Shown: positions 4,691 to 23,554 of the stretch, in pieces
How the letters are laid out: each line of letters begins with the position of its first letter
Numbering within the stretch: position 1 is the stretch's first letter
DNA from: an uncultured Burkholderiales bacterium
GTDB lineage: Bacteria > Pseudomonadota > Gammaproteobacteria > Burkholderiales > Usitatibacteraceae
Assembly (NCBI GenBank): GCA_964617435.1
Contig: CAZTYC010000001.1
Span: 859-38,185, forward strand
Direction of reading: 5' to 3'
Length of the DNA stretch: 37,327 nucleotides
The notes under the pieces: generated by a model
Database searches by the model: none
Told to the model about the DNA's origin: nothing
The model's input: only the letters and a program-made list of their open reading frames with translations
Translations under genes and position numbers: made by a program

Positions 4691-5302
4691 TCAGCGCGCG
4701 TCCGCTGCCAGGAGCGCCGCCCAGTCCTCGCGCCGGATGCGTGCGACCGGCACGGCATTCCCGGCCTTTGGCAGGAACACGATCATCTCCAGCAGTTCAA
4801 GATGCATCCAGTCGGCGCGGTCCTTGCCGCCGTGCACATGCGACACCAGGATGGCATTGGTTCCGGGCGCGGGCGTTTCCGACAGCAGCGCGCGGCGCGC
4901 GGCGCCGGGGGGGAGCGCACCCGTCTCGGAACCGGCGTTCAGGCCCTTGGCGATCTCGGCGTTTCCAAAGCCCAGGCGCCTTGCGGTTTCCCGGTTTCGG
5001 CAGGGCTCGGAACTCAGAATCCGGCCTACCGGGACTTTCAAGGCACGCAACGCCGCCGCCACCTCAGCCGTGCTGCTGATGCCCACGGGCGTCAAAGCCG
5101 GCTTGGAACAATCTTCGATCTCCTCCGGCGGATACTGCGCGGCATGCCGGATATAGAGGTTGTACCCGCCCTTGCCGAGCGCCTGCACAAGCGCGGCGCC
5201 CTCCAGCCGGTGCGCTGCGTCCACGACGGGCAGCACGGGCGGCGTCCCGGGTGCCTGCGCGAGCACGCCAACTGACCAGAGCAACACCAAGGCCATGCGC
5301 AT
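4691..5302 (-). CDS. Secreted histidine-phosphatase-superfamily protein (SixA/phosphoglycerate-mutase-like), paralog 1
   Basis: 203 aa. It has a signal peptide (MRMALVLLWSVGVLAQA), GGYNLYIRHA (RH catalytic motif), SSEPCRNRETAR and VSHVH. Its ATG overlaps the TGA of the upstream ligase gene (TGATG on the minus strand at 5300-5304). Confidence 0.75.
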   Translation of the reverse strand: MRMALVLLWSVGVLAQAPGTPPVLPVVDAAHRLEGAALVQALGKGGYNLYIRHAAQYPPEEIEDCSKPALTPVGISSTAEVAAALRALKVPVGRILSSEPCRNRETARRLGFGNAEIAKGLNAGSETGALPPGAARRALLSETPAPGTNAILVSHVHGGKDRADWMHLELLEMIVFLPKAGNAVPVARIRREDWAALLAADAR

Positions 5303-6195
5303 CAGAATTTCTCCCGCACGCGAAGGAACGACGCAAAGCGCGGCAGCCCGGAATTGGTCAGCCCGCGATAGGTATAGGTGATTTCCGTGCCGATCGCTGG
5401 GGGGTTGGCGCGCTGTTCATCGGTGAAGCCGGTGCCGATGTTGAACTCGCGCCCGTCGGGCATCCGCACCCGCAATGCGCCCATCCGGCCGGCATGTCGA
5501 CCCTTGCCGGGAATGATGCCGACGACCGTGGCCTCGGTGTCTTCCAGCGGCTTCAATTTGTAAAGCGCGTCACTGCGGCCCGTGATGTAGGGCGCATCCG
5601 CACGGTGCAGCATCAGCCCTTCGCCGCCGCCCTTGACGACTTCGTCGAGCTTCTTCTTCAGCGCCTTCCGGTCCGCCACGCGGAATTGTTCCACCGCCCT
5701 GAGTTGCGGCCACGCTGCTGCCTCCGCAATGGCACGGATGCGCGCCGCACGCGCTTCGAACGTGTCCGGCGCGCCGGGCAGTTCGAACACCAGGTATTTC
5801 ACCTCGCGCCATTCGGCGTCGACGGGCTCGCTCTTGCGCACGATGCCGGACAGGCGCTCGAACTGGCCGCGCGCGATCCACAGCTCTCCATCCAGCGCGA
5901 TGTCGGGCAGCCGTTCAAGGAACCATTTCGGCGCGTTCACGACATTGCCGCTGCGGAAACGCAACACCTTGCCATCCCACACGGCGCGCACACCGTCGAA
6001 TTTCTCGCTGACCAGGTAGTCGCGCGGATCGACATGCGCGGGCAACACTTTGGCCAGCAGCAGGTCCGGCGCCGCACGCGAGGGCGTGCAGGCGAGCAAC
6101 ACAAAAAGCCCAAGACCAAGAAGCCAAACCCAAGCACTGGCGCGGCCCGCAGGGCGAAACTGTCCGGAAGCGCCCGTCCCGTCTGGACTTTTCAT
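5302..6195 (-). CDS. ligE: Minimal ATP-dependent DNA ligase with an N-terminal signal peptide (Lig E-type periplasmic/secreted ligase)
   Basis: The ATG at 6195 gives MKSPDG...AWVWLLGLGLFVLLACTPSRAAP (signal peptide, possibly lipobox-like LLAC). It continues with VSEKFDGVRA (KxDG adenylation motif, Lys codon 6001-6003), EGLMLHR, LYKLKP and the C-terminal OB-like part. The product is 297 aa, and the start lies 8 nt after the stop of the giant gene. The listed 991-aa ORF 5302..8277 is real only in this last part. Confidence 0.85.
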   Translation of the reverse strand: MKSPDGTGASGQFRPAGRASAWVWLLGLGLFVLLACTPSRAAPDLLLAKVLPAHVDPRDYLVSEKFDGVRAVWDGKVLRFRSGNVVNAPKWFLERLPDIALDGELWIARGQFERLSGIVRKSEPVDAEWREVKYLVFELPGAPDTFEARAARIRAIAEAAAWPQLRAVEQFRVADRKALKKKLDEVVKGGGEGLMLHRADAPYITGRSDALYKLKPLEDTEATVVGIIPGKGRHAGRMGALRVRMPDGREFNIGTGFTDEQRANPPAIGTEITYTYRGLTNSGLPRFASFLRVREKF

Positions 6196-6203
6196 GCCGC
6201 CCC

Positions 6204-9200
6204 CTAGGGAATCGTCCGCCCTGCGCGCGCCTTCGACGTGCTGACGTCTGCGGCGGAGATGGTCCCGCTGGCATTGATGTCGAGTTTGAAATTCGACGCG
6301 TCCACCGGCGTATTCCCGCTCCTGGCCTTGACGGCCGCGATGTCTGCGGCAGTGACCTTGCCCGTGCCGTTGACATCCCCCGGGAGGAAGCCGACCGCCA
6401 CCGCCGCGTTGACACTGCCGCCGGCATTCGTCAATTGCACCGTCAGCCGTGTGGCCTCCGGCACATTGGCCAGCGTGACCACGGCTTCGCTGCCGTTGGC
6501 CACGACCGAGGCGTTGATCCCCGCATAGGTCATGCCGGCCGCATCCAGCACACTGACCGTCCCCGGATTCCCGCCCAGCGAGCCGGTGAACACGAACACG
6601 ATCTGGTGGCCCGCGCCGATCACGCGCGGCTCTACGGTATAGGCGCCGTTGACATCGACACCAACGGCAAGCGGGAGAATGCCGGCAAAGCCGCCGTGCT
6701 GCTTGCGCGATTCGACGCGGTCGAGCGCGATGGGCGCAAACGGTGTCACGTCCACCGTCGCCGACGCCGCCCCTGTGCCCGCCGAATTCATCGCGGTCAC
6801 GGAGCAGGTATAGGTGACGCCGTTGGACAGGCCGCTCACCAGGATAGGCGAACCGGCGGCACTGGCTGTCTTCATGCCCGGATTGCAGGTGACGGTGTAG
6901 CCGAGGATGGCGCTGCCGCCGTTGCTCGCCGGTGGCGAGAACACGATGCTGGCCGCACCATCGAGTTCGTCGGGAATGCCGATGGTGGGCGCGCCGGGAA
7001 CAGTCACCGCCGCGGGCGTGACATCCAACGCGCTCGAGGCCGGGCCGATTCCCATGTTGGCCGCCGCGGCATTGCGCGCCGTGACAGAACAGGAATAGGT
7101 GACGTTGTTCGCCAACCCGGTCACCGTGATCGGCCCGTTCGCCGCAGTCCCGGTGCGCGTCGTCTGGCCCGATGCCGTGCAAGTGACGGTGTAATCGATG
7201 ATCGCGCTGCCGCCGTTCGAAGCGGGCACCCCGAAGGAGACCTGCGCCTGCGCGTTCCCCGGCGTGGCGGTGCCGATGACGGGCATCCCGGGCGGAACGG
7301 GCGTGATCGTCACATTCTGGGTGGCTTGCGAGGCCGCCGCGTAGTTGGCATTGCCGGCCTGGTTGGCCGCAATGGTGCAGGTGCCGCCGAACACCATCGT
7401 CACCGTGGTGCCGCTCACCGTGCAAACCGGAGAGGTGATGGAGGAATACGTCACCGGATTGCCGGACCCGCCGCCGGAGGCCAATGGATTGATCGGGAAA
7501 GGGCCGCCGGGCACGAAGGATTGCGAAGACGGCGACTGGGAGGCAAAGGTGATCGTCTGTGCGGCGGGGGCGATGGTCAGCGTCAACGGCGCCATGCCGG
7601 TACCGCCGGCATTGGTCGCCGAAATCGTTGCGTTGAACACACCGCCTGCGCCAGCGGTGCCGGAAATCGCGCCGGTCATCGTGTCGAGGACGAGTCCAGT
7701 GGGCAAGCCGGCAGCGCCAAAGGAAGTCGGTGTTCCCGTGGCCAGGATCTGGTAACTGAACGGTGCATTGAAGGTGCCATTCGCCGTCGCGGCGCTGGTA
7801 ATCGACGGCGCACCAGGCAATACGGTGATCGTGACCTGGACCGGATCTCCATCGACATTCGGACTGGTTCGCTTGCCGCGATAGGTAAAGGAGTCGATGC
7901 CGGCAAAGCCCGGGTTGGGCGTGTAGGTGGCGACGGTGCCAGCAAAGGTGCCCAGCATGCCGTTGGTGGGAGGCGTCACCACCTCCACGTCCGTGAAGGC
8001 GGACCACGCCTGGCCGGTCAGGTGGATGTGGCTCGCCACGTCCACCTGCACAGGCGAGTTCTGCGACGTGCTGGGCGCATTCGCTGGCAACTGGTCGCGA
8101 ATGAACACGGCGATCGCGGCCAGTTCCGACTGCGTCAGGTTTTGCACCGGCGGGGAGATGGCCATCAACGGTTGCGCGGTACGCACATGCTGCAGCACTG
8201 TGGCGGTGCTGCCGGCGCCGTTGAGCTGGTTTCCGGAAGGCGAGGCGGCATGGCAGTTTGCGCACACGCTGGTCCACAGGGCGCTGCCGTTGGCCGACGT
8301 GGGCGTGACCATGACGCTGCCGGAGGGGCCGCTGGTCTTGCCGGCCTGGTTGGTTGCCGTCACGCTACAGGTGTAGGGCGTGCCGTTGGAAAGTCCACCG
8401 ACGGTCACCGGAGAAGCGGAATTGTTTCCAGTCACTCCGCCGGGGTTGCAGGTGGCGGTGTAGGTGGCGATGGCACTACCGCCCGCGCTCGAGGGCGGCG
8501 TGAAATTGAGGGTCGCGGCCATGTCGGAACCGCTGGCCACGCCGATTACAGGCGCCCCCGGGGCAATGGCATCAATGGTGACGCTCTGCGTGACCTGGGT
8601 CGCGGCATTGTAGTTGGCGTCCCCAGCCTGATTCGCCGCAATCGTGCATACGCCCGCGCTCAACGTATTAACGTTGTTGCCGGCCATGGTGCACACCGCC
8701 GGCGTGGTGGTGCTGTAGCTGATGGGCAATGCCGAAGTCGCAAAAGCCACGGGCGACAGCGCGAAGGGCGTAGTGCTGAAGTTGCGCGGGCTTGCCTGCG
8801 CGCTGAAGGTAATGGTCTGCCCCGCCTTGGCGATGGTGAACGCGCGCGTGACATCGTTGGCGGCCAGGTAGTCCGCGTTGCCCGCCTGGGCGGCCGTGAT
8901 CGAGCAGACACCGGGGGCGACCGTGGTCAGGTTGGCACCGGACACGGTGCAGACGGCCGGCGTGTTGCTGCTCAGGGTCACCGCCAGGCCCGAGGACGAA
9001 CTCGCCGCGAGGGGAATCGGGGCCTGCGCGTAGCTTTGCGTGCCCGGATTGGCAAAGCTGATCGTTTGGGCGACCTTGGCAACCGTCAGCGTGAACGACT
9101 GCATCACCGTGCCGGTTGCGTTTGTGGCGGTGAAGGTCAGCGGATACGGCGACGCGTTCGCGGTGCCGCTCGCGGGCAAACCGGACAGCACACCGGTCGC

Positions 9201-12200
9201 CGGCACAAAGGTAACGCCGGACGGCAGGGTCCCGCTGACCGACAGCACCGGTGGCAGGTTGCCTGTTGCCGTCACGGTAAACGTGCCGTTGGCCAGCACC
9301 GAGAAACTGGTCGCATTCGCGCTGGTGAAGTTGGGTGCCACCAGGGCGGCGGTCGGGGTCGCAAGCACGGGCGGGCTGGAGTCCGGGCCGGTCAATGCGG
9401 CGGCATTGGTCGCCGTCACGGTGCAACTGTATTGGACCCCGTTGGTCAACCCGCCGACGGTGATGGGCGACGTCGCGCTGGTCCCGGAGCCGCTCGGCGA
9501 ACAGGTCGCCGAGTACTGCGTGATCGGGCTGCCGCCGGTGTTCGACGGCGGCGAGAAGGACAGGCTCGCCTGCATCACGCCCGCCACGCCCATGACTCCC
9601 GTGGGCGCACCGGGCGCGACGGCGCTGATGGTCACGTTCTGCGTCACCTGCAGCGCGGCGTTGTAATTGGCGTTGCCGCCCTGGTCGGCAGCGACGGTGC
9701 ACACCCCCGCGGCAACCGGCGTCACGTTCGTGCCCGCCACGGTGCACACGGACGGTGTGAGCGAACTGTAGGTGACCGTCAGGCCGGACGTGCTGCTCGC
9801 CAACGGGCTGACGGGGAAGCCGGCGCCGAAAGGCTGCGGACCGGATTGCGCGCCGAAAGTGATCGACTGCGCGGCCGGCGAGATGGTCACCTGCACGAGC
9901 TGCATGCCGGTGCCCCCCGGGTTGGTGGCCGACACGGTGACGTTGAAGACGCCCGCTTGCCCGGGTGTTCCGCTGATGAGGCCACTTGCGGTGTCGATGG
10001 TTACCCCCGCGCCGAGCGGGCTCGCGCCGTAACTCACCGGGGATTGCGTGGCCGAGATCTGGTAACTGAACGGCTGGCCAAAGACGCCATTGGCGGCCCC
10101 TGGACTGGTAATCGCAGGAGCCGGCGGCGTGGCCACATTGACCGTTACCGTGAAGGCATCGCCCAGCAACAACGGCGAAGAGCGGCGCCCGCGGTAGGTG
10201 AAGCTGTCCATTCCCGCAAAGCCCGGATTGGGCGTGTATGTGATGACCGTTCCGTTGAATGCCGACAAGGTACCGTTGGCCGGCTGGCTGACCACCTGCG
10301 CGGCATCAAACGCGACGCCGCCCAGATACAAGTGTTTCGGCAGGCCGACGTCGATGTCCACCGGCGTCACATATGCGGTGTTGGCGGTGATGGGCGACAG
10401 TTGATCGCGGATGTACTTCGCGATCTCGGAGAGTTCATTTGCGGTAAGCGCCTGGACCGCGCCATCGGCGAGCATCTCCGGCTGCACGGAGCGCACATAG
10501 GCAATGATGTTGCCGGTCGCGCCGGCGGCGTTGAGGCGGCCTGCATTTGGCGTGGCACCATGGCAACCGCTGCAGACCGCATTCCAAAGCACAGTCCCGC
10601 TGCGCAGGGTCGGCGTGGCCATCAGCGCGTTGGACTCCGCCCCCACCCCCTTGGAATTTTGCGCCGCCACCGTGCACGTGTAAGCGGTGTTGTTGGTTAG
10701 CCCTCCGACCACCACGGGTTGCGACGCGCCATTGGCGGTGACGCCGCCGGGATTGCAAGTCCCCCGGTAGCCCGTGACGGCGGCGCCGCCATCGCTGGCG
10801 GGCGGATCGAAGTACAGCCGGATCGTAGAGTCATTGGCCAGTGTGTCATTGAGAGTGGGCGCGCCGGGCGGCACCGCATTAATCGAAATGTTGGCGTTGA
10901 CGGAACTCGCCGCAAAGTAATTTTGGTCTCCCGGCTGCGCCGCGGTCACCGTGCAGATCCCGGCAGAAAGGATCGTGATATTGGTGCCCGCCGCCATGCA
11001 AACGCCGGGGGTGGCCGAGGTGTAGTCGATGGGCAGGCCAGACGTCGCACTGGCCAGCGGGCTGATCGCGAATGAACCGCCCTGGACGAATGGTTGCGCC
11101 GCTTGCGCAGGAAAGGCGATCGATTGCGCCGCCTTGCCGATGACCACGTTTTGCGTCACATCGGCGGCCGCAAGGTAAAGCGCGTTGCCGTCCTGCGACG
11201 CTTCGATGGTGCAGGTGCCCGCGCCGATGATCGTAACCGTCGTGCCGGCCACGCTGCAGGTCGAGGGCGTCAGCGATGCGTAGCCGACCGCGAGTCCGGA
11301 AGATGCCGACGCCGTCGGGCTGATCGCAAAGCTGCCGCCCGGGCTGTAGGTGCGGCTTGCCTGGGCCCCGAACGTGATCGATTGATTTCCCTTGTTGATC
11401 GAGAAACTGCGCGCCACCTGGGAAGCCGGGTTGTAGCTTGCGGTATAGGACAGGGACGCATTCGCTGAATTGGCGTTGATGGTGCAGGTGCCGACGCCAA
11501 CGGTCGTCAAGAGCGTGCCGGACACGGTGCAAACGGGCGACGTCGCGCTGGTGAACACGATGTTCGACGCAGCCAGGGTGCTATTGGGCGTGGCGATGGT
11601 CGCCGCGAGGTTGTAGGTCGGCGAGGCCGTGTACTGCTGGTCCGCAACGGCCGGGAACGTGATGGTGGGGCTGCCCTTTGCGACGCTGAACGACAGCGTC
11701 TGCGTGGGGCACGGCGGCAACGTACCGCACTGCGAATTGTCCGCCTTCAACGTCAATGAGTAGGAACCCACGGATCCGGCCGCCGGAACTCCCCCCAACC
11801 AGGCGAGGCCGGGGGGAATCCTGGCGTTGGTGGCGTTGGTCTGGAACGTCATCCCGGACGGCAGCGACGATGCGTTGGTCAGCACCGCATTGGGACGCGC
11901 CGTGGTGACCACGACGAAGGTCTTCGAGGCTCCCACGTTGAAGGCATACGACGCGGGCGGCAACGTCGCCGCACTTCTGAAGGTCGGTCCAATCGGCGTG
12001 GATATTGGCGTCACCGACGCGGGCGACGAAGGCGGGCTGACCCCGAAACTGTTGCTCGCCGTCACCGTGCACGAATACGCCACGCTGTTGACCAGATTGA
12101 GCACGACAATCGGCGAGTAAACCGTGGTTGAACTTCCCGTCCGCGTTGTTTGGCCGGCTGCCGTGCAGGTTGCCGTGTATGTCACGCCCGGACCATTGCC

Positions 12201-13649: not shown

Positions 13650-13664
13650 GTCTCCCCCTAGTCA

Positions 13665-13689
13665 GCACGCCCAAGGTTTTGGGGCGTGC
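13665..13689 (-). promoter_or_regulatory. Stable hairpin in the leader, just upstream of the SD of the giant gene
   Basis: GCACGCCCAAGGTTTTGGGGCGTGC forms 10 consecutive Watson-Crick pairs plus one G-U, with a 3-nt loop. It ends 15 nt from the ATG. No U-tract follows on either strand, so it is not a classical terminator. Confidence 0.45.
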
Positions 13690-13951
13690 CAACCCAATGC
13701 CGCAGTCTATTCCCGTGGCATTGCGACAAATAGTGAATTCCGCACCCATCCCGTGAATGCGGGGCGGGGCGCTCCCTGATGATGGAAAGGCTTGACCCTA
13801 GATCTGGAGCGGACTTTCAGCCAAAAATGCCCGGAAAAGCCCGTCTATCAAGGACTTTGACTTTCTTCTTCTGATCTGGCGCGACGCAGACGCGGACTGC
13901 TCAGTGACTCAGCCGCATCGGTCGAGGCGCGGCCTTCCGCCGTGGCATCCC

Positions 13952-14662
13952 CTAGTTTCGGGATTGCGCCGGCGCGCCGTTGCTCAGCGCGCCCCATTCA
14001 CCCGACCGGATCCGCGCCACCGGCACCGGTGGCCCATCCGCCTTGGGACGAAACACGATCACCTCACCCATGTCCATGAACAGCCGGTCCGTTCCGCCAT
14101 TGCCGTTCTGCATATGCCCCACCAGCAGCCGGTTTTTGCCCGGCGGCGGGACCGTGGCGATCAACCGGGCGCGGCCCTCGTGCAAGCGGTGATCCTCGCG
14201 CTTGGGATTCCGATGCAAATCTTCATGCGTTTCCACCGGGGCGACGTCGACCAGCCTGGCGGTTTCCCAGACGCGGCACACTTCGGAGGAGATGACCTTG
14301 TCGAAAGGAATCTCCAGCCGCCGCATTTCCTGGCCGATGCGGCGCGCTTCCTCGCGGCCGGACGCGGTCAGGTTACTTTTGTCGCACGTCGGCGTGACCT
14401 CGCCGGTTTCCGTGTGCCGCAGGTAAAGCACATATCCGCCACGCCGCAACTCCTCCAGCAGGGCCTTGCCGGAGAGTGCGGACGCCTCGTCCACTTGCGG
14501 AATGCGCGGCAGGCCCCCGGGAGGCGTGCCCGAAACTTGCGCCAATGCCTGCATGCCGGGTACCAGGAGTAACCAGCCGACGAGCAAGGTTGCAACGCGG
14601 CGATCGCGCGACCTGGCAGCGCAATGTGTTTCCGTCGAATGGCAATTCGCACGCCTGATCAT
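13952..14662 (-). CDS. Secreted histidine-phosphatase-superfamily protein, paralog 2
   Basis: Starting at Met 14662, the hydrophobic signal region is VATLLVGWLLLVPGMQALAQ. GGYVLYLRHT, SSEVCRVWETAR and VGHMQ follow, and the tail (EVIVFRPKADGPPVPVARIRSGEW) is shared with paralog 1 (EMIVFLPKAGNAVPVARIRREDW). The start codon is uncertain; the listed ORF extends to 14791. Confidence 0.7.
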   Translation of the reverse strand: MIRRANCHSTETHCAARSRDRRVATLLVGWLLLVPGMQALAQVSGTPPGGLPRIPQVDEASALSGKALLEELRRGGYVLYLRHTETGEVTPTCDKSNLTASGREEARRIGQEMRRLEIPFDKVISSEVCRVWETARLVDVAPVETHEDLHRNPKREDHRLHEGRARLIATVPPPGKNRLLVGHMQNGNGGTDRLFMDMGEVIVFRPKADGPPVPVARIRSGEWGALSNGAPAQSRN

Positions 14663-14853
14663 CAGCCAATCCCCTGTTTGCGGGTCAATATGACGTTGGC
14701 ATTTTGGCATCTTCCGGCGTAACATGACGTCGGCCCAACAGGTTGAGAGTTTGCCTGAGTACCTTGTTCCAGGCCATTGATTGCAATACAATTTTTTGCG
14801 CCCCAGATTTCGCGCTCGGCGCGCTCGTTGTCTTCCGGCAAAAAGGGAATCCT

Positions 14854-17800
14854 ATGGCCCCGAGTATTGGCGGCATCTTTTGGCTATGCAGGCAGGTGCG
14901 CTGGACCGCCCTGCTCTTCCTCGTTGCCCTGGCCGCGACCTTGTCATCGCATGAAGCGCGGGCGCAGTCGATCGCCGCCGGTGCCAACATCTGGGCCCCA
15001 TTCAATGCAATGACCAACCCCACCGGCCAAGGGTGTGGCGGCTGCCACGGCACTCCGCCGAGCCTGCCGCAAAAGAACGCGGGCAACGCAGTGGCCGTGT
15101 TCAACGCCGCCATTGCGGCGAATGCCGGTAATTTCATGGGCGCGTACTCGGGCATGAGCGGCACGGATCGCCAGAGCGTCGCGCTCTATATCGGCTCTTC
15201 CGGCGGAGTCACCGAATCGGCAAGCCACTCCGTGACCGTCAACTACGGCAGTTCTGGAAATCTGATCACGCCGCTTAACATCGGCGTGAGCTACACCAGT
15301 GCCAGCATGACCGGCCTCAACGGCGGCACCGTGCAGCAGATCGCCACCACGTCAGGCCCGACGCGCGGCACACTGGCATCGAGCACCCTGACCACCGCTG
15401 GCGCGACGTTCAGCTACAACCACACCGCGACGAATTGCACGGCAGATTCGATTACCTACCAAGGGTCCGGGGTTTCCGGATCGCTGACTCAAGCAAAAAC
15501 GGTCACGATCAACATCACCCCCCCCACCCCGCCGACAATTTCGAACTCGTCGGCAAACATCGCCTACAACTCGTCGATGTCCACCAATATTCCGCTGACC
15601 TTGGGCGGCGGCACGGCGACGTCGCTGATCGTCGGTGCGCTGTCCGGGGGGGCGGGTACGTTGAATGCCACCGGCACCACGCTGACCTACACCGCCAGTG
15701 CCAGCACATATGTGGCCTCCCAGACCGTCAGCGTGCAGGCGGTCGGGCCGTGCGCGACCTCCGCCGCGGCCACCATCACCATCAACGTCGCGGCTCCTCC
15801 GGTGCCGGTGATCACCAGCGCCAACATGGCTTCGGGCGTCGGCGGACAGGCATTCAGCTTCAATGTCACGGCGAGCAATGCGCCCACCGGTTTCGCGGCA
15901 TCCGGTTTGCCCGCGGGTCTGAGCATCAACCCGACGACGGGCGCCATCACCGGAACCCCGTCGGTGTCCGGCATGTTCACCGCCATGGTGACGGCCTCCA
16001 ACGGATCGGGCACAAGCACCGCGCAATCGCTGGCCATCAACGTCACGCTGGCCACGCCGGTGATCACCAGCACGCTCTCCGCGAACGCCACCTCGGGCTC
16101 GCCGTTCACCTACAACATCACCGCAAGCAACCTGCCGGCCAGTTTCAACGCCACCGGGTTGCCGACCGGGCTGATGATCAACACGAGCACCGGGGCGATC
16201 ACCGGGACGCCGGTGGTGGCCATGGCGGGCACCGTGGCGATCACATTGTCGGCCACCAACACTGCGGGGACCGGCACGGCGACGCTGATGCTCAACGTTT
16301 CGCTCAACGCGCCCACCATCACCAGCGCCAACACGGCCAGCGGCAATGTCGGCAGCGCATTCACGTTCAATGTGACCGCAACGGACTTCCCCTCTTCATA
16401 CGGCGCCACGGGATTGCCGGCAGGCTTGTCGATCAACACGATGACCGGGGTGATCTCGGGGACACCCACCTCGGCCGGCGTATCGATGGTCAACCTCACG
16501 GCCACCAACGGAGCGGGCACCGGAATGCAGACGCTCGTGATCACCATCACGCTCCTGCCACCGGTAGTGAGCAGCGGCGCGTCGGTGTCGGGAACGGTCA
16601 CGCAACCGGTGAGTTACCAAATCACGGCCTCGAATTCACCCACGTCCTTTGGTGCGTCCGGGCTGCCCGCAGGGCTGTCCGTCAATGCCATGACCGGCCT
16701 GATCAGCGGCTCACCGACGTCCACCGGGACCACGGTGGTGACTGTCTCCGCCACCAACGCCGCCGGCACGGGCACCAAGGCGGTCACTTTCTCAATCTCC
16801 AATTTCCCGGCGCCCACAATGGCGGGCGCCACGATCCAGGTGCCTTTTGGCGGGACCGGCACCGTGGACTTCTCGCTCTTGTCCGGCGGCAGCAACGTGA
16901 CCAGTTATGTGATCACGCAACCGGCCACCCGAGGCACGATCACCGTCAACGGCAACGTTGCAACTTACACGCCGCAGGCCGGATTCTTCGGCATGGATTC
17001 CTTTGGGGTGACCGCCATGGGCCCCGGCGGAACCTCCCAGCAGGGCCTCATCACGGTGATCGTTGGCACGCCGGCCGCGCCGACCGTCGCGGCGCGCAGC
17101 GTGACGGTGCCCTACAACACGCAAACGGTCATCAGCCTGACCGCCGCAGTCACGGGCGTGGCCACCAGCATTGCCATCACCACGCCTCCCGCCAACGGCA
17201 CGGCCACGGTGAGCGGGCTGACGGTCCTTTACAAGCCGAAGGCGGATTACTTCGGTGACGACAGTTTCGCGTACACCGCCACCGGGCCCGGCGGAACCTC
17301 GATGCCGGCCACCGTTTCCATCACCGTCGCCACGCAGGCGCCATCCGCCTCCGCCGTCAGTTTCGCGGTACCGGCCAACACCGCCACCACGATGGACCTC
17401 AAGCCATTCATCACCGGTTCGGCGATCACCGGGGTGCGGGTCACGGTGGAACCCAAGTTCGGCAAGTCTGCGGTCAATGGCACCAAGGTGGTCTACACGC
17501 CCAATGAGGATTACCTGGGTCCGGACAGCCTTTCCTACATCGCGTTTGGCAATGCCGGCACCTCGGCAGCCGCTGTCGTGACGATCACCGTCATGGGCGA
17601 TCGTCCCAATCCGCTCAAGTCCGGCACGGTGGGCAGCATTGTCAGTTCCCAGGCAGACACCGCCCAACGCAATGCCACGACGACGATCACGACACTCCAG
17701 ACCCGAAACGAGGCCCTGCGGCGTGGGGGCGAGGTGGCCGACGCCAGCCCGGCCCCGCGTGCGCCGCGAGCGCAAGGGAGGGTCGAAACCTCGCTTACCG

Positions 17801-19674
17801 AAGGCGTGACGGGTACCCCCGCCGATTCACGCGCTCGGCCAGTCAGTGCGACGGCGGCCCCCGCTGACGCCAAGGGCCTCCAGGGCACGTTGGCGCAAGC
17901 AGTGTCCTCGCGCAGCGTGGACCTCGCCAGCGTGGCCCAGGCGGCGAGCAGCGGGGCGGTCAGCCAGGCGCCGGATCGCAGCGTCGGCGCGGTGAATTGG
18001 TGGGCTGCGGGAACCGCCCAGTTCGGCAATCGCAAGGGCGATGGCTCGTTCTCGGGCAGCGAGTTCACCACCAGCGGCATGATGTTTGGCGTGGACAAGC
18101 GTTTCGCGCGCGATCTGGCGGCCGGCATCGCCGTCGGCTTCATGCGCGACAACACTACGCTTGGCACGGACGGCTCCGCGAACAAGGCGCGGGCCGCCAC
18201 GCTGTCCCTCTATGGCAGCTACCAGCCTACGCGCGACACGTTCCTCGACGGGTTGCTCGGTTACGGCCGGCTCAACTTCACGTCGCGCCGCGCCATCGCG
18301 GCCAACGGAAGCATTGCGGAAGCCGATCGGGACGGAACCCAGTTCTTCGCGTCGGTCGCGGGCGGGTACGAAAAGCGCGAAAACGGCGTGCTGTGGTCGC
18401 CCTACGCGCGCCTCGACTACGCTTCCAACCGGCTCGACCAGGCCACGGAAAACAACGCCGGGCTGTATTCGTTGACCTACGGTTCGTTCACCCAGCCCTC
18501 GCTGCAGGGCGTCGTCGGCGTGCGCACCGAATCGGTCCATCGCACCAGCTACGGCGGGGCGAGCCCGCGGGCGCGCTTGGAATTCAGGCACGAATTCCAG
18601 GCGAACCGGGATACGAGCGTCGCGTACGCGGATCTGCCCGGCACGCGGTACGCACTGGTCAGCGCCCAGACGCTGCGCAATGCGATCGTGGCGTCCGTCG
18701 GATCGGATTTCCAGTTCAGTCGCGGCCTGACGGTCGGCATCGACTACCAGGTCACCCACGTGTTCAACAAGGACAGCAACCAGGGCTTGCGCCTGACGAT
18801 CACGCAGCCGCTCGACGGCAAGGGCAGCCCGCTGTTCTTCACGTCGCTGCCGACGACGCCGGCCAAGCCCAAGGATTACCAGGCCGATGCCGGCTTCATG
18901 TTCGACACCAACGTGACGCGCGCCAAGGCCGGGCCGGACAAGCTGTCCGACCGGATCTACTCGGTGAACACCAGCAAGAGCGAACTGTTCACCTTCGAAG
19001 ACCGCGAGAACATCCGCGCCACGGTGACCGTCCTTGCCGGGGCCGAGAAGTTCGACCGCTTCTCGGGGCTCGACCGCGCGGTTGCCAGCATCGAAGCCGA
19101 CGGCAAGTACAAGACTTCGGCGGAGTTCGACGCCTACACGTTCGGCGCCACGCTTTCGGTGGCCGGCGACCAATACCAATCAAAACTCCGCCGCGGCTAC
19201 CGGGCCAGTTTCACTCTATCGGCGCGTCAACAGCTCACCGATTTGATCGGTGTCTTCGCCGCGGCCTCGTACAACCAGCGCTGGGCGAACAGCAAGGTGT
19301 TCGACAACCGGTTCTCCGCGTTCCGCCTCAATGCCGACTATCAATGGAACGCGAACGACACCCTGTATGTAACCGGCGAGTTCCGCAAGGGGCACAGCGT
19401 GTCGTCGGGCAGCGGGTCTCTGGAGGACCTGGCGGTGGCCCAGATCTTTGTCGACGATGACGCTTTCCCGCACCGAGACTTCAACGCCTACCGGTTCGAA
19501 GCCAGGACCTGGATATCCACCGTGGGATACAACATGGGCTTCGGGCCGCGCCACGCGCTGGACCTGTCCTGGCGTCGCGCGCAGTCCACGCCGACCTTCC
19601 GGCCGAGTTACGCCACGTCTGCGAAGAGTTACATCGCAGACCAGTATTCGATCGTTTACCTGATTCGCTTCTAA
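14854..19674 (+). CDS. Large autotransporter-type outer-membrane protein (~1606 aa): N-terminal CXXCH cytochrome-c-like head, Ig-like repeats, autotransporter beta-domain and an extra C-terminal beta-rich extension
   Basis: ATG 14854 is preceded by AAAAGGGA. The signal peptide is WTALLFLVALAATLSSHEARA. GQGCGGCHG lies at aa 61-65. The passenger carries four ~84-aa He_PIG-like and three cadherin-like repeats. The autotransporter beta-domain runs NWWAAGTAQFG...GVDKRF...LSLYGSY...GLLGYGRLNFTSRR...EFRHEF. About 285 further residues end in YSIVYLIRF, a C-terminal aromatic OMP signal. Confidence 0.88.
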   Translation: MAPSIGGIFWLCRQVRWTALLFLVALAATLSSHEARAQSIAAGANIWAPFNAMTNPTGQGCGGCHGTPPSLPQKNAGNAVAVFNAAIAANAGNFMGAYSGMSGTDRQSVALYIGSSGGVTESASHSVTVNYGSSGNLITPLNIGVSYTSASMTGLNGGTVQQIATTSGPTRGTLASSTLTTAGATFSYNHTATNCTADSITYQGSGVSGSLTQAKTVTINITPPTPPTISNSSANIAYNSSMSTNIPLTLGGGTATSLIVGALSGGAGTLNATGTTLTYTASASTYVASQTVSVQAVGPCATSAAATITINVAAPPVPVITSANMASGVGGQAFSFNVTASNAPTGFAASGLPAGLSINPTTGAITGTPSVSGMFTAMVTASNGSGTSTAQSLAINVTLATPVITSTLSANATSGSPFTYNITASNLPASFNATGLPTGLMINTSTGAITGTPVVAMAGTVAITLSATNTAGTGTATLMLNVSLNAPTITSANTASGNVGSAFTFNVTATDFPSSYGATGLPAGLSINTMTGVISGTPTSAGVSMVNLTATNGAGTGMQTLVITITLLPPVVSSGASVSGTVTQPVSYQITASNSPTSFGASGLPAGLSVNAMTGLISGSPTSTGTTVVTVSATNAAGTGTKAVTFSISNFPAPTMAGATIQVPFGGTGTVDFSLLSGGSNVTSYVITQPATRGTITVNGNVATYTPQAGFFGMDSFGVTAMGPGGTSQQGLITVIVGTPAAPTVAARSVTVPYNTQTVISLTAAVTGVATSIAITTPPANGTATVSGLTVLYKPKADYFGDDSFAYTATGPGGTSMPATVSITVATQAPSASAVSFAVPANTATTMDLKPFITGSAITGVRVTVEPKFGKSAVNGTKVVYTPNEDYLGPDSLSYIAFGNAGTSAAAVVTITVMGDRPNPLKSGTVGSIVSSQADTAQRNATTTITTLQTRNEALRRGGEVADASPAPRAPRAQGRVETSLTEGVTGTPADSRARPVSATAAPADAKGLQGTLAQAVSSRSVDLASVAQAASSGAVSQAPDRSVGAVNWWAAGTAQFGNRKGDGSFSGSEFTTSGMMFGVDKRFARDLAAGIAVGFMRDNTTLGTDGSANKARAATLSLYGSYQPTRDTFLDGLLGYGRLNFTSRRAIAANGSIAEADRDGTQFFASVAGGYEKRENGVLWSPYARLDYASNRLDQATENNAGLYSLTYGSFTQPSLQGVVGVRTESVHRTSYGGASPRARLEFRHEFQANRDTSVAYADLPGTRYALVSAQTLRNAIVASVGSDFQFSRGLTVGIDYQVTHVFNKDSNQGLRLTITQPLDGKGSPLFFTSLPTTPAKPKDYQADAGFMFDTNVTRAKAGPDKLSDRIYSVNTSKSELFTFEDRENIRATVTVLAGAEKFDRFSGLDRAVASIEADGKYKTSAEFDAYTFGATLSVAGDQYQSKLRRGYRASFTLSARQQLTDLIGVFAAASYNQRWANSKVFDNRFSAFRLNADYQWNANDTLYVTGEFRKGHSVSSGSGSLEDLAVAQIFVDDDAFPHRDFNAYRFEARTWISTVGYNMGFGPRHALDLSWRRAQSTPTFRPSYATSAKSYIADQYSIVYLIRF
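15034..15048 (+). other. CXXCH motif (CGGCH) at the N-terminus of the autotransporter passenger
   Basis: TGT GGC GGC TGC CAC encodes aa 61-65 counted from ATG 14854. The sequence continues ...NFMGAYSGMSGTDRQSVALYIGS, which resembles the Met-ligand and C-terminal helix region of small cytochromes c. Confidence 0.55.
15799..16809 (+). repeat. Four tandem ~84-aa He_PIG-type (putative Ig) repeats
   Basis: The pattern P.ITS......G..F.....AS..P..F.A.GLP.GL.IN..TG.I.GTP....G.......ATN..GT recurs four times back to back. Confidence 0.8.
16810..17613 (+). repeat. Three tandem cadherin-like/bacterial Ig repeats
   Basis: The pattern ...P..G...V.G..V.YTP...Y.G.DSF.Y.A.G.GGTS....V.I.V recurs three times. 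The same module type occurs after each cytochrome domain of the 2481-aa protein. Confidence 0.75.
17992..18813 (+). other. Autotransporter beta-barrel domain
   Basis: The ~275 aa show alternating beta-strand patterning and the hallmarks listed for the parent CDS. Confidence 0.8.
18814..19671 (+). other. Additional ~285-aa C-terminal beta-rich extension of unknown family, ending in an OMP beta-signal
   Basis: A Pro/Lys linker (DGKGSPLFFTSLPTTPAKPKDYQ) is followed by alternating hydrophobic/polar strands (YTFGATLSVAGD, YRASFTLSARQQ, FRLNADYQWN, TLYVTGEFRKG, ISTVGYNMGF, LDLSWRR). The terminal sequence is YSIVYLIRF. Confidence 0.5.
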
Positions 19675-19685
19675 AGGATCCGACC

Positions 19686-21638
19686 GTGAAACGTACTCCC
19701 ATAGCCTCCTTTGGACTGTGTTTCGCGTTGTCCGCGCTCCTCGCGGGCTGCGGAGGCGGCGGCCAGGGCGAAACGACACCCGATGTCGTGCCCGGCCAGA
19801 AAGCCACGCCCCCGACCACCGGGCCCAACCTGTTCCTGCTGTTTCCGAACCCCCAGAAGCAGGCCGACGGCACGATCGAAACCAATACCGCCGCATATAC
19901 GCAGTCTTACTACGAGGCCATCGACCCGAACAATGAACGGGACACGCTGACCAAGTACAAGCAGAAGAATGGTTTTGGCAGCGGCACGGGGGAAGAAGTC
20001 ACGGTCGTGTTCGGCGACCAGCGCGACTTGGGTTACGGACGGCGGATGAACGCGCGCCGCAATCCGGACGGCACCCTCGCCTTCTTTGTCGAAAACTACC
20101 TGATTCAGGCGGGCGAGGGCTACCAGTACTCCCCCGCCAACCTGGAAGCCGCCATCGTGCGCGATCCAAAATGGCTGGTCGGCATCAACGCGATTGAATT
20201 CACGCCCGGGCCCAACGGCGGCGCGCCGTTCCCGAAGTTCTACAACTTCGTGGCGGGCACCGAGCAACGCGCAACCTTCGTGGATCTGGACGGCCGCGGC
20301 GGCAAGGCCATGCCCGGGCCGTGCATCAGCTGCCACGGCGGGCGCGGCGACGCCTTGATGCCGGCGGACGCCAGCGGGAAGCGCAAGTTCAATCTGGTTC
20401 AGAACGGCGTGTCGCTGCAGCGCGGCGACGTACAGGCGCGCCTGCACCCGTTTGAGCCGGATGTGTTCGGCTTCTCGACCACCACGGGTTTCAGCCGCGC
20501 GGAGCAGGAGGCCAGCATCAAGAAGATCAATACCTGGATCCTGTGCAGTTATCCGATCCACAGCGCATCCACCGCGCCGGAAGACCAGTGCCGGCGTCCT
20601 GCGGGCGCGAGCGAATGGCTGGCTCCGCAGGCCGATCTCATCAAGGCCGCATACGGCGGCACCGGATTGCCGCGCGCCAATTGGGATGACACCTACGTGC
20701 CGCCGGGATGGGAATCGGTGGGGCAATCCTCGCTCTACCGCGACGTGGTCGCCACGTCCTGCCGCACCTGCCATTCCCAGCGCGGCACCATCCTCCAGGA
20801 TGACATTTCTTTCCCCACCTACGCCAAGTTCGCCGCGTATTCCGACCGCATCAAGGCGCATGTGATCGACCGCGGCAACATGCCGCTCGCGCAGATCGTC
20901 TACAACGCGTTCTACGGCAACAACCGCCAGGAAACCGTCGGCGCATTCCTGGCCCAGCAGGGGTTGAACGTCAAGGATTCGGCCGGCGCGACGCTCAAGC
21001 CCGGCCGTCCGGTCGCGGATCCGGGCCCGTCGAGGGTCGTCCGCCAGGGGGCCTCGCCCCTGTCCGCGTCGAACAGCCTCTACGCCTCGTCCTACGCTTG
21101 GAGCATCCTGTCCGGGCCTTCCGGCGGCGCGACGATTTCGGCCCCCACCTCTGAGAACACCACGTTCAACGCCTCGCTCAACGGCACCTATGTGGTGCGA
21201 TTGGTGGCCTCGGCCGGCAGCGTGCAAAGCGCCCCAGTGGACATCACCATCGTCGTCGACAATTCACTGGCGAAATCGCCCGCAGACATCCGGTTTGCCG
21301 ACATCAAGGCCGTGCTTCAATCGGCGGAGGCGGGGTGCACGAGTTCGAATTGCCACTCCGCGGGGGGCACGCAATCCGCGCCGGTGTTCTACACCAACTA
21401 CGATCGCAACGGCGATGGCGTGCAGAACAGCATCGACGAGGACTGGTTCCATGCGGAGGTCCGCAGCCGGATCAATTTCACGGACATCGTGTCCAGCCCG
21501 CTGCTGCGCAAGCCTTCGGGAAATCACCACGCCGGCCTGCTGCGTCCCGGATTCGACGCCACGGCGGCCCCCGGCCAGTCCGCGCGCGCCAACTTTGACC
21601 TGTTCCAGAACTGGATCCTGAACGGCGCCCCAAAGTGA
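19686..21638 (+). CDS. Lipoprotein (650 aa) with two CXXCH motifs and one CX4CH motif; putative haem lipoprotein of unknown family
   Basis: The GTG start lies 11 nt after the autotransporter stop, with SD AAAGGA. The lipobox is LLAG-C (Cys22 codon 19749-19751), followed by a GGGGQ linker. The motifs are CISCH (20322-20336), CRTCH (20760-20774) and CTSSNCH (21336-21356). The last is followed by SSPLLRKPSGNHHAG, reminiscent of planctomycete-type cytochrome c modules. Confidence 0.8.
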   Translation: MKRTPIASFGLCFALSALLAGCGGGGQGETTPDVVPGQKATPPTTGPNLFLLFPNPQKQADGTIETNTAAYTQSYYEAIDPNNERDTLTKYKQKNGFGSGTGEEVTVVFGDQRDLGYGRRMNARRNPDGTLAFFVENYLIQAGEGYQYSPANLEAAIVRDPKWLVGINAIEFTPGPNGGAPFPKFYNFVAGTEQRATFVDLDGRGGKAMPGPCISCHGGRGDALMPADASGKRKFNLVQNGVSLQRGDVQARLHPFEPDVFGFSTTTGFSRAEQEASIKKINTWILCSYPIHSASTAPEDQCRRPAGASEWLAPQADLIKAAYGGTGLPRANWDDTYVPPGWESVGQSSLYRDVVATSCRTCHSQRGTILQDDISFPTYAKFAAYSDRIKAHVIDRGNMPLAQIVYNAFYGNNRQETVGAFLAQQGLNVKDSAGATLKPGRPVADPGPSRVVRQGASPLSASNSLYASSYAWSILSGPSGGATISAPTSENTTFNASLNGTYVVRLVASAGSVQSAPVDITIVVDNSLAKSPADIRFADIKAVLQSAEAGCTSSNCHSAGGTQSAPVFYTNYDRNGDGVQNSIDEDWFHAEVRSRINFTDIVSSPLLRKPSGNHHAGLLRPGFDATAAPGQSARANFDLFQNWILNGAPK

Positions 21639-21665
21639 CGGGTGAAGAGTCGTTGTGAATGGACG

Positions 21666-21697: not shown

Positions 21698-21711
21698 CGC
21701 CAACCGCGCAA

Positions 21712-22443
21712 TCAATAGTTGCGTCGCGGTGCGTTGTACGCGTCCTTGCCGAACGCGAACGGCGTGGTGCGACCCACCAGCGATTCAATCAGCGCAAGCT
21801 CCAGGTCCGTGTGGTTGACGAAGGGCGCGTTGCTGATCGCCTTGTTCCCATCCTTGCCGATATACACCGGCCGGTCGTGCTGTGTGGCGGTGATGGTTTC
21901 CTTGGCTTCGGGCTTGGCATTGGCACTGACCTCGGTGGTGCCATAGCAGGTGCAGAAATAGCTCTGCTCCTCCTCGGCCTCCACGTAAAACCCAGTTCCG
22001 CGGATACCGATGGTGGCGGTCGGCGTCCGCAACCGCATGGGCTGGTTGCGCGAAACGCTGAGCAGGGCACCGGTCAGCATGCGCAGGCCGGACACGATGA
22101 GCGAATCGGCCTTCTTCTCCGCCTCGATCACGACATTGCTGTTGGCACGCAGGATCATGGCCTGGGTGTTGACCACAAAGACCAGCTCGCTGTCCTTGGC
22201 GGTCTTGACCGTGTCCCCGGGGTTGACCCTGGTGCCCAGGGTGGCCGGCTTGTCGTTGACCGTTGCAGTGCCGGAAATGCGGTAGATCGACTGGCCCGCG
22301 GGAAGGCGGCCGGGCTTGCTCCCGAAGATGTTGGCGACCTGCGCAAGTGCGGCGGGTGAAGACGCCCCCAGCAAGCCGGCCCCCAGCATCTGGATGAGAA
22401 TGCGCCGGCGCGGGTCTTCACGGTCTTTGTCGATCAGGTACAT
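21712..22443 (-). CDS. Tat-signal periplasmic FecR-domain protein, tandem paralog 1
   Basis: 243 aa. The twin-arginine signal is DPRRRILIQMLGAGLLGASSPAALA. The FecR-like core is GQSIYRISGTATVNDKPATLGTRVNPGDTVKT...GIRGTGFYVE. A conserved FCTCYG is present, and the SD is GGAG. Confidence 0.85.
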   Translation of the reverse strand: MYLIDKDREDPRRRILIQMLGAGLLGASSPAALAQVANIFGSKPGRLPAGQSIYRISGTATVNDKPATLGTRVNPGDTVKTAKDSELVFVVNTQAMILRANSNVVIEAEKKADSLIVSGLRMLTGALLSVSRNQPMRLRTPTATIGIRGTGFYVEAEEEQSYFCTCYGTTEVSANAKPEAKETITATQHDRPVYIGKDGNKAISNAPFVNHTDLELALIESLVGRTTPFAFGKDAYNAPRRNY

Positions 22444-22485
22444 GAGGTCTCCAGATTTGGGAAATTGAAGGGCGGCGGCCCGGAC

Positions 22486-23223
22486 TCAGTAGTTCCTGCG
22501 CGGCGCGTTGTACGCATCCTTGCCGAACACAAACGGTGTGCTGCGGCCGACCAGCGATTCGATCAGCGCCAATTCAAGGTCCGTGTGGTTGATGAACGGA
22601 CCATTGACAATGCCACTGCCCTTGGACGCATCGTTGGTTATATAGACCGGCCGGTCGTGCTGCGTGGCGGTGATGGTTTCCTTGGCCTCCGGATTGGCGG
22701 CGGACGCCACCTCGGTGGCGCCGTAGCAGGTGCAGAAGTAGGTGCGGTCCTCTTCGGCCTCCATGTAGAACCCGGTGCCGCGGATGCCGACCGTGGCCGT
22801 AGGCGTGCGCACGCGCATCGGCTGGTTGCGGGAAACGCTGAGCAAGGCACCGGTCAGCATGCGCAGGCCGGAGACCACGAATGAATCGGCCTTTTTTTCC
22901 GACTCGATGACCACGTTGCTGTTGGCACGCAGGATCATGGCTTGCGTGTTGACTACAAAAACCAGTTCGCTGTCCTTGCCGGTCTTGACGGTATCCCCGG
23001 GATTGACCTTGGTGCCCAGTGCCGCAGGCTTGTCGTTGACGCTCGCCGTGCCGGAAATCCGGTAGATGGACTGGCCCGCCGGCAACTTGGTCGGACGCGA
23101 GCCAAAAATGCTGGCGACCTGCGCCAGCGCAGCCGGGGAGAGGCTGCCCAGCGCTCCAAGGGTGAGCATCTGGATCAGGGTACGGCGGCGGGGATCATCG
23201 CGGTTCTTGTCGATCAAATACAT
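22486..23223 (-). CDS. Tat-signal periplasmic FecR-domain protein, tandem paralog 2
   Basis: Using Met 23223 (MYLIDKNRDDPRRRTLIQML...), the protein aligns end to end with paralog 1. By eye, roughly four fifths of residues are identical. The SD is GGAG, 7 nt upstream. The listed ORF starts 4 codons earlier. Confidence 0.85.
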   Translation of the reverse strand: MYLIDKNRDDPRRRTLIQMLTLGALGSLSPAALAQVASIFGSRPTKLPAGQSIYRISGTASVNDKPAALGTKVNPGDTVKTGKDSELVFVVNTQAMILRANSNVVIESEKKADSFVVSGLRMLTGALLSVSRNQPMRVRTPTATVGIRGTGFYMEAEEDRTYFCTCYGATEVASAANPEAKETITATQHDRPVYITNDASKGSGIVNGPFINHTDLELALIESLVGRSTPFVFGKDAYNAPRRNY

Positions 23224-23554
23224 TGTGGGCTCCAAGAGCCGGGGAATACCGGCATCGGGCGTCAGGGGTGAGGTACGAATCGGCCGGTTTCCCGGATGCA
23301 GGCGATCTTAGCATTTCCGTTTCAACAGGCCATCCCTCATCCGCGCCAAGGAATTCCCTGATTCGCGGACGCTTTCGGGGCGGCGAGACCCCGGCCTTCG
23401 CCAAGCCGCCATCCCTTGGTCGTGGGAATGTTCCCTTCACCGGCAATCCCCTGCGTTAAACTCGCCGGAATGCCCGGACGCGGCTGTGCCGGGGCATGCC
23501 GCAATTCCAACAAGATCCGGCAGCACCAACGCCACACGTCATCGGGGAGCACTC

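Follow-up and report, generated by a model that had tools for sequence, protein, structure and literature searches.

A predicted outer-membrane barrel–cytochrome module with FecR-like and CHASE2 neighbours in an uncultured Burkholderiales bacterium

Outer-membrane β-barrels are joined to c-type haem in Cyc2, a single polypeptide in which a signal peptide and a single N-terminal CXXCH domain are linked directly to a 16-strand porin, and in the porin–cytochrome complexes (MtrCAB, MtoAB/PioAB, Geobacter Pcc), in which a barrel of ~26 strands, encoded beside a c-type cytochrome gene, sheaths a decahaem protein (PMC8406198). Here we analyzed a stretch of 37,327 nt (contig CAZTYC010000001.1, positions 859-38,185, forward strand; hereafter the window) from an uncultured Burkholderiales bacterium (Usitatibacteraceae), a soil betaproteobacterium, in which a predicted outer-membrane barrel, termed Cext, is encoded directly before a predicted trihaem cytochrome lipoprotein, with FecR-like proteins and a CHASE2-domain nucleotide cyclase behind. 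This module is a variant of the outer-membrane barrel-plus-cytochrome kind whose two core families, Cext and the lipoprotein, have not been described before. In line with an earlier note on this DNA, made from the sequence alone, which knew of no characterized system of such composition, we found no description of one in the literature searched, nor of CHASE2, a c-type cytochrome and a lipoprotein occurring together.

In the window, Cext forms the end of a fusion protein. Like Cyc2, this protein unites an outer-membrane barrel with a signal peptide and one N-terminal CXXCH domain in a single polypeptide, and has a PxL after the haem motif, but it differs from Cyc2 by an immunoglobulin (Ig)-like stalk of ~970 residues between the cytochrome domain and a 12-strand autotransporter barrel, and by the second barrel that follows (PMC8406198). 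Membership in the Cyc2 family was rejected, the signature AxPxFAR[Q/K][T/Y] being missing from the three haem-motif proteins of the window and from 503 of 503 collected homologues. With the porin–cytochrome complexes, the locus shares the outer-membrane barrel gene beside a c-type cytochrome gene; in contrast to them, it encodes a barrel of ~12 strands and a trihaem lipoprotein, and a periplasmic multihaem partner was not found nearby. MtrC is likewise an outer-membrane lipoprotein cytochrome.

With the type Va autotransporters (EstA 3kvn, NalP 1uyo, EspP), the fusion protein has in common the signal peptide, the passenger and the 12-strand PF03797 barrel. Unlike in these, its translocator is not C-terminal, as an unrelated second barrel lies behind it, and its passenger starts with a haem-motif domain; in the literature searched, we found no description of a barrel behind an autotransporter domain or of such a passenger start. 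The Slam-like translocon (DUF560 plus TPR) was considered for the order of a barrel gene before a lipoprotein gene and rejected, since there was no DUF560 or TPR signal and only the gene arrangement is similar.

On the signalling side, FecR-domain proteins recurrently adjoin CHASE2 sensors, as in clusters of Campylobacterota (PMC9239204) and in the BiofilmReg operon of Burkholderia (PMC5192318), and the pairing is also found on plasmids of Paracoccus and Sinorhizobium. In the NsrA-CyaD1/D2/K system of Sinorhizobium meliloti, the CHASE2 cyclases depend on NsrA, an outer-membrane barrel, to perceive their signal (PMC13001267). The present locus resembles these systems in having a FecR-domain periplasmic protein beside a CHASE2 cyclase and, for S. 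meliloti, in the upstream barrel, whereas a cytochrome is not reported for them (PMC9239204, PMC5192318, PMC13001267). Cext gave no detectable match in a plasmid collection that included pSymB. The FecA-FecR-FecI system similarly comprises an outer-membrane component and a FecR-domain protein relaying to a cytoplasmic output, but neither a TonB-dependent transducer nor an extracytoplasmic-function (ECF) sigma factor was found among the scanned open reading frames of the window, the FecR-like protein is short, soluble and twin-arginine-targeted instead of being a membrane anti-sigma factor, and the output would be a nucleotide cyclase. A lipoprotein sensor is combined with a small barrel in RcsF, which is threaded through OmpA, OmpC or OmpF, and a disordered tether of the present lipoprotein could similarly cross the lumen of a barrel. 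This likeness is an analogy only: RcsF is devoid of a cofactor and uses general porins, whereas here a dedicated barrel is encoded next door.

Barrel, lipoprotein and FecR-like protein at the core

Loci around lipoprotein homologues were collected with 10-kb flanks (84 loci, 80 of them from a metagenome scan with an alignment query) and searched with the window proteins. The Cext gene was located directly 5′ of the lipoprotein gene in 59 of the 60 loci with enough sequence, and a FecR-domain gene directly 3′ of it in 53 of 55 loci, the remaining two having one close by. The FecR-like gene is mostly convergent to the lipoprotein gene, but in six loci it follows immediately after it in the same orientation; in two of these, L031 and L035, the lipoprotein, FecR-like and CHASE2 cyclase genes form a same-strand array with gaps of ~50 nt. 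Among the 29 loci with at least 4.5 kb of downstream sequence, a CHASE2 cyclase was found within this distance in 12, comprising eight of 11 loci with a stand-alone Cext barrel, three of 15 with a fused one and one of three whose class could not be assigned. The window itself falls in the cyclase-carrying group. A predicted core of the Cext barrel, the trihaem lipoprotein and the twin-arginine FecR-like protein is therefore well supported, with the gene for the CHASE2 inner-membrane cyclase as a frequent fourth member. This triad occurs without the giant protein, autotransporter, ligase or phosphatase genes described below in its stand-alone-barrel form, and the unit is redrawn here as 14851-25819, with 4691-14725 as a lineage-specific accessory operon. 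The FecR-like genes and the cyclase (21712-25819) lie beyond the coordinates of the earlier note, which had overlooked these partners.

The two-barrel architecture emerged from an AlphaFold2 (AF2) model of the C-terminal 609 residues of the fusion protein, calculated from a 50-sequence alignment of full-length database proteins to the window fragment, with a mean predicted local distance difference test (pLDDT) score of 82. Its residues 50-322 form the autotransporter barrel, for which Foldseek returned EstA (2.7e-14) as well as NalP, EspP and BrkA, and a PDB profile search matched EstA (3kvn, 9e-14) and also an autotransporter chain. The PF03797 domain stops ~300 residues before the C-terminus, and this remainder, missed in the earlier note, is modelled as a second barrel of ~12 long strands (residues 345-608; pLDDT mostly >90). 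Cext yielded no Pfam match even at E = 10, and a Foldseek search with the two-barrel model was dominated by autotransporter barrels, with nothing specific for Cext; TM-scores of this model against 22-strand barrels were ~0.2. A duplicated autotransporter domain was ruled out (hhalign probability 0.1%). The C-terminal extension is common to 85 of 120 homologues of the fusion protein and closes with a conserved VYLxRF-type motif (SIVYLIRF in the window).

Searching 1.84 billion representative proteins, we detected Cext in 478 representative clusters, located at the extreme C-terminus in all 150 matches listed. The 143 representatives looked at in detail included 51 short ones and 88 fusions with an autotransporter domain. 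Of the two forms encoded 5′ of the lipoprotein gene, the short one consists of a signal peptide and Cext only (290-400 aa; 27 complete examples, e.g. L053:8789-9928), and the long one was complete in 17 cases, 15 of them with an N-terminal haem motif. The stand-alone form with its own signal peptide and the constant C-terminal place indicate that Cext is an autonomous barrel, predicted to lie in the outer membrane, with which the lipoprotein is primarily paired. As judged from these homologues, the portion comprising autotransporter and cytochrome is an N-terminal addition in one lineage (Usitatibacteraceae and relatives).

The lipoprotein possesses the lipobox LLAG-C22 and the motifs CISCH at residue 213, CRTCH at 359 and CTSSNCH at 551, against a chance expectation of 0.002 for CXXCH, computed, as for the proteins below, from the protein's own Cys and His content. 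No identical record was obtained by exact look-up, and the family comprises more than 1200 clusters at 90% identity. Three haem motifs were present in all of the 120 best homologues (60-87% identity), the third as CXXCH in 82 and as CX4CH in 38. Across a 41-sequence alignment C22, all three Cys-Cys-His sets and M399-P400 were invariant, and the cytochrome family PF13442 was detected in 38 of these 41 members (E ≤0.01, best 2e-7) and PF00034 in 23, the window protein itself reaching only 18.5 bits against PF13442. The AF2 model (mean pLDDT 78, predicted template-modelling score 0.77) shows a compact, multi-domain protein with a disordered tether comprising residues 23-45. A PKD domain at about residues 445-525 was the only part with solved relatives in the PDB profile search and in Foldseek; nothing useful came from PDB sequence searches, whether with the lipoprotein or with single cytochrome segments. 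Right after the tether, the invariant segment FLLFPNPQ (residues 50-57, window 19833-19856) is modelled at pLDDT <50 in the monomer, as would be expected if it folded only upon meeting a partner; it is a candidate for the part that docks on, or threads through, the Cext barrel.

For the fusion protein, whose likeliest start is the ATG at 14851, CGGCH is located at residue 61, 24 residues past the predicted signal-peptide cleavage site (ARA/QS), with a chance expectation of <0.001. Exactly one CXXCH or CX4CH was found within the first 160 residues in 72 of the 85 homologues sharing the C-terminal region; the other 13 contain CX3CH or CX5CH or are N-terminally truncated. By itself this domain scores only 13 bits against PF13442, but a hidden Markov model (HMM) built from 78 autotransporter N-terminal domains matched the two PF13442 domains of the giant protein along their entire length (2e-17 and 2.8e-15). 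All 78 N-terminal domains contain, 15-60 residues beyond the CH, a Met that is a candidate axial ligand. The passenger is predicted, with good support at the sequence level, to be an Ig-like stalk that has a monohaem cytochrome c domain of class I at its tip.

The FecR-like protein is encoded by two tandem copies in the window, both retained in a relative whose lipoprotein is 92% identical. In the same relative (L085) a third, shorter FecR-like match lies at 11117-11767, between the lipoprotein gene and the two copies. The twin-arginine motif DDPRRRxL was found in 55 of 57 family members, and the conserved motifs FCTCYG, HHD and NHTDQE suggest a cofactor-bearing protein more than a plain signal relay; a search against the PDB gave zero matches.

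Table 1 Predicted features of the locus (window coordinates)
Feature	Position	Strand	Evidence or remark
hp1, secreted histidine-phosphatase-like protein, 203 aa	4691..5302	-	Sub-cut-off PRK06193-type matches, IRHA motif, paralogue of hp2
Lig E-type periplasmic ATP-dependent DNA ligase	5302..6195	-	NF006592 (PRK09125) 361.8 bits, cut-off 200
Giant secreted fn3/Ig/He_PIG protein, 2481 aa, with choice-of-anchor-V domain, two cytochrome c domains and C-terminal dockerin	6204..13649	-	
Giant, cytochrome c domain 2 (CANCH 1796)	8040..8318	-	Second PF13442 stretch; PF00034 residues 1786-1816; family HMM 2.8e-15
Giant, cytochrome c domain 1 (CSGCH 1026)	10365..10634	-	PF13442 residues 1014-1080
Giant, CGSCH (residues 70-74) in choice-of-anchor-V domain	13428..13442	-	NF041895 82.8 bits, residues 45-176
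hp2, secreted histidine-phosphatase-like protein	13952..14725	-	PF00300 29.5 bits, cut-off 21.7; LRHT motif
Fusion protein, 1606 aa: signal peptide, monohaem cytochrome c domain, Big_9/He_PIG stalk, autotransporter barrel, Cext	14851..19674	+	Pfam: autotransporter beta domain, He_PIG x4, Big_9 x3
Passenger N-terminal cytochrome c-like domain, CGGCH residues 61-65	14962..15240	+	Family HMM, conservation
Classical type Va autotransporter beta domain	17998..18750	+	PF03797 155.6 bits
Cext, second beta-barrel, ~12 strands, no family assignment	18772..19674	+	AF2 barrel roughly 18877-19668
Trihaem c-type cytochrome lipoprotein with PKD domain, 650 aa	19686..21638	+	Starts 11 nt after fusion gene
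FecR-like periplasmic protein, twin-arginine signal, copy 1	21712..22443	-	PF04773 29.7 bits, cut-off 24
FecR-like protein, tandem paralogue, copy 2	22486..23235	-	PF04773 31.5 bits, cut-off 24
CHASE2-domain class III nucleotide cyclase	23486..25819	+	PF05226 190.6 bits, PF00211 72.9 bits; divergent from FecR-like genes

The accessory operon and neighbouring genes

The giant protein, whose gene is transcribed divergently from the fusion gene, contains CGSCH at residue 70, CSGCH at 1026 and CANCH at 1796 (CXXCH expectation ≤0.004), and Pfam recognized five fn3 and three He_PIG domains, Big_9, Dockerin_1 and two Cytochrome_CBB3 (PF13442) stretches with 53.5 bits against a cut-off of 27. A Met is present in both cytochrome domains. 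The first motif is kept as CGSCH in most close orthologues, within a domain that is not a recognized cytochrome domain; some giant paralogues begin with an ordinary cytochrome c domain instead of choice-of-anchor-V. About 40 homologues show CXXCH near residues 60, 1025 and 1795, corresponding to one per ~770 residues after the first, and paralogues of 3.8-3.9 thousand residues contain up to five. The module vocabulary that the earlier note saw as common to the giant and the autotransporter was borne out, with He_PIG segments 36-42% identical between the two proteins and the autotransporter HMM matching the giant's cytochrome domains.

As also described in that note, the minus-strand unit runs from the giant into the ligase and on to a phosphatase-like gene: the giant's stop codon lies 8 nt from the ligase ATG at 6195, and the ligase stop overlaps the hp1 start by one base. 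The ligase comprises only the core nucleotidyltransferase (NTase) and OB domains (PF01068 DNA_ligase_A_M, PF14743 DNA_ligase_OB_2) with a KFDG motif and a hydrophobic leader or signal peptide, and belongs, by passing NF006592, to the known enzyme class Lig E (PMC10799422), which is periplasm-targeted and affects biofilm and extracellular-DNA use in Neisseria (PMC10799422; bioRxiv 10.64898/2026.03.22.713542). In the literature searched, we found no description of a Lig E gene flanked on one side by the gene of a giant cytochrome protein and on the other by that of a secreted phosphatase-like one. hp1 had zero matches in Pfam. The second phosphatase-like gene, hp2, lies 302 nt upstream of the giant gene and starts at either 14725 or 14662.

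A ligase was seen in none of the 84 lipoprotein-centred loci, whose 10-kb flanks stop short of its position, and ligase linkage was read from giant-centred loci. In L091 (GCA_054049875.1), the order is a giant paralogue, a phosphatase-like gene, the giant orthologue (65%), Lig E (63%) and a phosphatase-like gene (56% to hp1). In L089 (GCA_016850065.1), the autotransporter gene is divergent from a giant paralogue, a phosphatase-like gene, the giant orthologue (67%) and two more giant-like genes; a ligase was not within reach of the locus. The order of phosphatase then giant is thereby found in two other genomes (L089, L091), and that of giant, ligase and phosphatase in one (L091). The closest relatives, Usitatibacteraceae MAG_MBR_H10.61 with a lipoprotein of 92% identity, retain hp2 and the beginning of a giant gene, and their contigs end inside the giant repeats. 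Judging from these gene orders, the giant-ligase-phosphatase linkage is real but narrow, confined to the giant-bearing lineage and not part of the core. Of the six genes of the earlier note, those of autotransporter and lipoprotein are co-conserved, but the six are not one unit, with the ligase linkage recurring in a single other genome.

In L089, region 1955-27443 (+) contains at least four giant fn3/He_PIG/dockerin genes in tandem, three of them with cytochrome c motifs and with one phosphatase-like gene among them, which looks like an expanding paralogue family. In L091, the gene that comes after the phosphatase gene (15636-18581, +) is absent from the window; it encodes a secreted protein of 981 aa that contains six CXXCH motifs and matches Cytochrome_P460.

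Further genes surround the redrawn unit. Directly 3′ of the CHASE2 cyclase and on the same strand, a metallo-beta-lactamase-fold gene (Lactamase_B + B_lactamase-like_C, ~25881-26927, +), kept in the closest relatives L085 and L086 and not in L001, might encode a nucleotide phosphodiesterase. The window has two FecR-domain/CHASE2 gene pairs (21712-25819 and 26962-31048). The second cluster (26962-31867, -) comprises a response regulator (31175-31867), a LysM+FecR protein (29402-31048) and a CHASE2-PAS-HisKA-HATPase kinase (26962-29391), matches the gene order of the Burkholderia 'BiofilmReg' operon (PMC5192318) and is independent of the first pair. The flanks of the locus carry genes for a Crp-like cNMP-binding regulator (1529-2239, +), which is a possible reader of the cyclase product, a PAS-GGDEF diguanylate cyclase (2470-3417, +) and a DsbA-like thioredoxin-fold protein (3985-4647, +). 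An Rfam scan returned zero families at gathering score, and a promoter and terminator scan was uninformative.

Possible functions of the module

The reading that we favour, at about even odds, is that the locus encodes an outer-membrane redox sensing or transfer module that signals via the FecR-like protein to the cyclase, and does not function as a respiratory wire. In such a module, the proteins would be exported by Sec and their haems attached in the periplasm, and the lipoprotein cytochrome would associate with the Cext barrel at the outer membrane, where the FLLFPNPQ segment may dock in, or pass through, the narrow barrel. The FecR-like protein would then read the redox or ligand state of the haems, into which surface monohaem domains may feed, and the CHASE2 cyclase, where present, would turn this state into a cyclic-nucleotide signal. 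In the fused lineage, monohaem domains on stalks and giants would extend the reach of the module.

Sensing is preferred to respiration because three plus one haems and 12-strand barrels match no known conduit, because single haems ~770 residues apart cannot relay electrons, because genes for periplasmic multihaem cytochromes or oxidases are not nearby, and because the conserved neighbours are signalling-type proteins. These neighbours, the conserved FecR-like protein and the frequent CHASE2 cyclase, point to signalling at least as much as to electron export or DNA-matrix handling. The earlier note's picture of haem domains displayed on long Ig stalks gives way to that of a lineage-specific addition to an older core, given the stand-alone-barrel form that occurs without giant and autotransporter.

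Several observations weigh against redox sensing through the cyclase. The cyclase is missing near 17 of the 29 loci, being present in only those three of 15 in the fused class, and in loci without it the gene beyond the FecR-like one varies. The FecR-like protein, twin-arginine-targeted and Cys/His-rich, could equally be a redox partner and not a transducer. The haem regions of the lipoprotein were modelled at lower confidence in an AF2 run that was carried out without haem. Surface display of the N-terminal cytochrome is uncertain: a type Va barrel would have difficulty in passing a folded domain loaded with haem, and the domain may stay periplasmic. We hold our confidence at an even balance because over half of the loci lack the cyclase and because of the possible redox role of the FecR-like protein. 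A more specific version, in which the triad is a haem-based surface signalling device reporting the extracellular or outer-membrane redox state to CHASE2 cyclases, with the lipoprotein threaded or docked in the barrel and the fused form displaying, or being gated by, a holo-cytochrome passenger, is correspondingly more tentative, and we would sooner expect it to fail than to hold in all its parts.

That the barrel, the lipoprotein and the monohaem domains at the surface form an electron conduit through the outer membrane that serves energy metabolism, for example by oxidizing Fe(II)/Mn(II) or reducing extracellular acceptors as Cyc2 or the porin–cytochromes do, appears unlikely to us. The outer-membrane barrel gene beside a lipoprotein c-type cytochrome gene would fit such a conduit, as would cytochrome domains on extracellular-type stalks and in giant secreted proteins, a FecR-like protein serving as the periplasmic redox partner, and the hexahaem P460-type protein adjoining the related locus L091. 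Yet barrels of ~12 strands are too narrow for a cytochrome, only three plus one haems are available, and the ~770-residue spacing of the giant's haems does not permit electron hopping inside one protein. The Cyc2 signature is missing throughout the collected proteins, and genes for a periplasmic multihaem cytochrome (8-10 or more haems), quinol or oxidase functions were found neither in the window nor in the annotated relatives L001, L002, L085 and L086. The described members of the host family, Usitatibacteraceae, are known as aerobic organotrophs.

We give a similarly low probability to an adhesion or matrix apparatus, in which the giant and the autotransporter would be mainly adhesins or biofilm-matrix proteins, with cytochrome domains in a ligand-binding or structural role, acting together with Lig E and the phosphatases on extracellular DNA. 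The fn3, Ig, He_PIG and dockerin architecture and the tight translational coupling of giant, ligase and phosphatase, retained in L091, are consistent with it, as is the role of Lig E in Neisseria (PMC10799422; bioRxiv 10.64898/2026.03.22.713542). However, the ligase linkage recurs in just one other genome, with L089 having further giants at this place, the core triad occurs without giant, autotransporter, ligase and phosphatase, and the strictly conserved haem motifs and Met ligand would be left without an explanation. Of the surface redox/adhesion apparatus that the earlier note had envisaged, the envelope haem proteins are retained here, and a single six-gene apparatus tied to DNA handling is only weakly supported.

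That the CXXCH motifs bind no haem at all, being metal-binding or disulfide motifs in ordinary repeat proteins, would agree with the 13 bits of the autotransporter domain against PF13442 and with the location of the giant's first motif in choice-of-anchor-V, but is very improbable in view of PF13442 matches, above cut-off in the giant and also found in 38 of 41 lipoprotein homologues, the exchange of CXXCH with CX3CH and CX4CH as at known c-type haem sites, the invariant His after the second Cys, the conserved distal Met and the export signals on all three proteins. All seven haem motifs first noticed in these three envelope proteins are in place, with a chance expectation of <0.01 per protein; detection by cytochrome HMMs is direct in the giant and in the lipoprotein family and indirect for the autotransporter, through homology to the giant's domains, and the Cys and His residues are conserved in orthologues of the lipoprotein (120/120), of the autotransporter (72/85) and, at equivalent positions, in the giant family.

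Significance

If correct, these predictions would describe a hitherto undescribed outer-membrane cytochrome module that is abundant in soil and freshwater proteobacteria. For outer-membrane biogenesis, they would add two oddities, namely two tandem barrels in one polypeptide and an autotransporter passenger that starts with a c-type cytochrome domain; type V secretion is not known to handle a holo-cytochrome c passenger. The nanowire model would not accommodate a family of giant secreted proteins in which single haems recur at regular intervals. By database names, the family includes the complete genome of Betaproteobacteria bacterium GR16-43, presumably a cultured organism, which would make genetics and haem biochemistry feasible. 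For CHASE2/FecR sensors, whose signals have so far been largely unknown, the module would provide a concrete input hypothesis.

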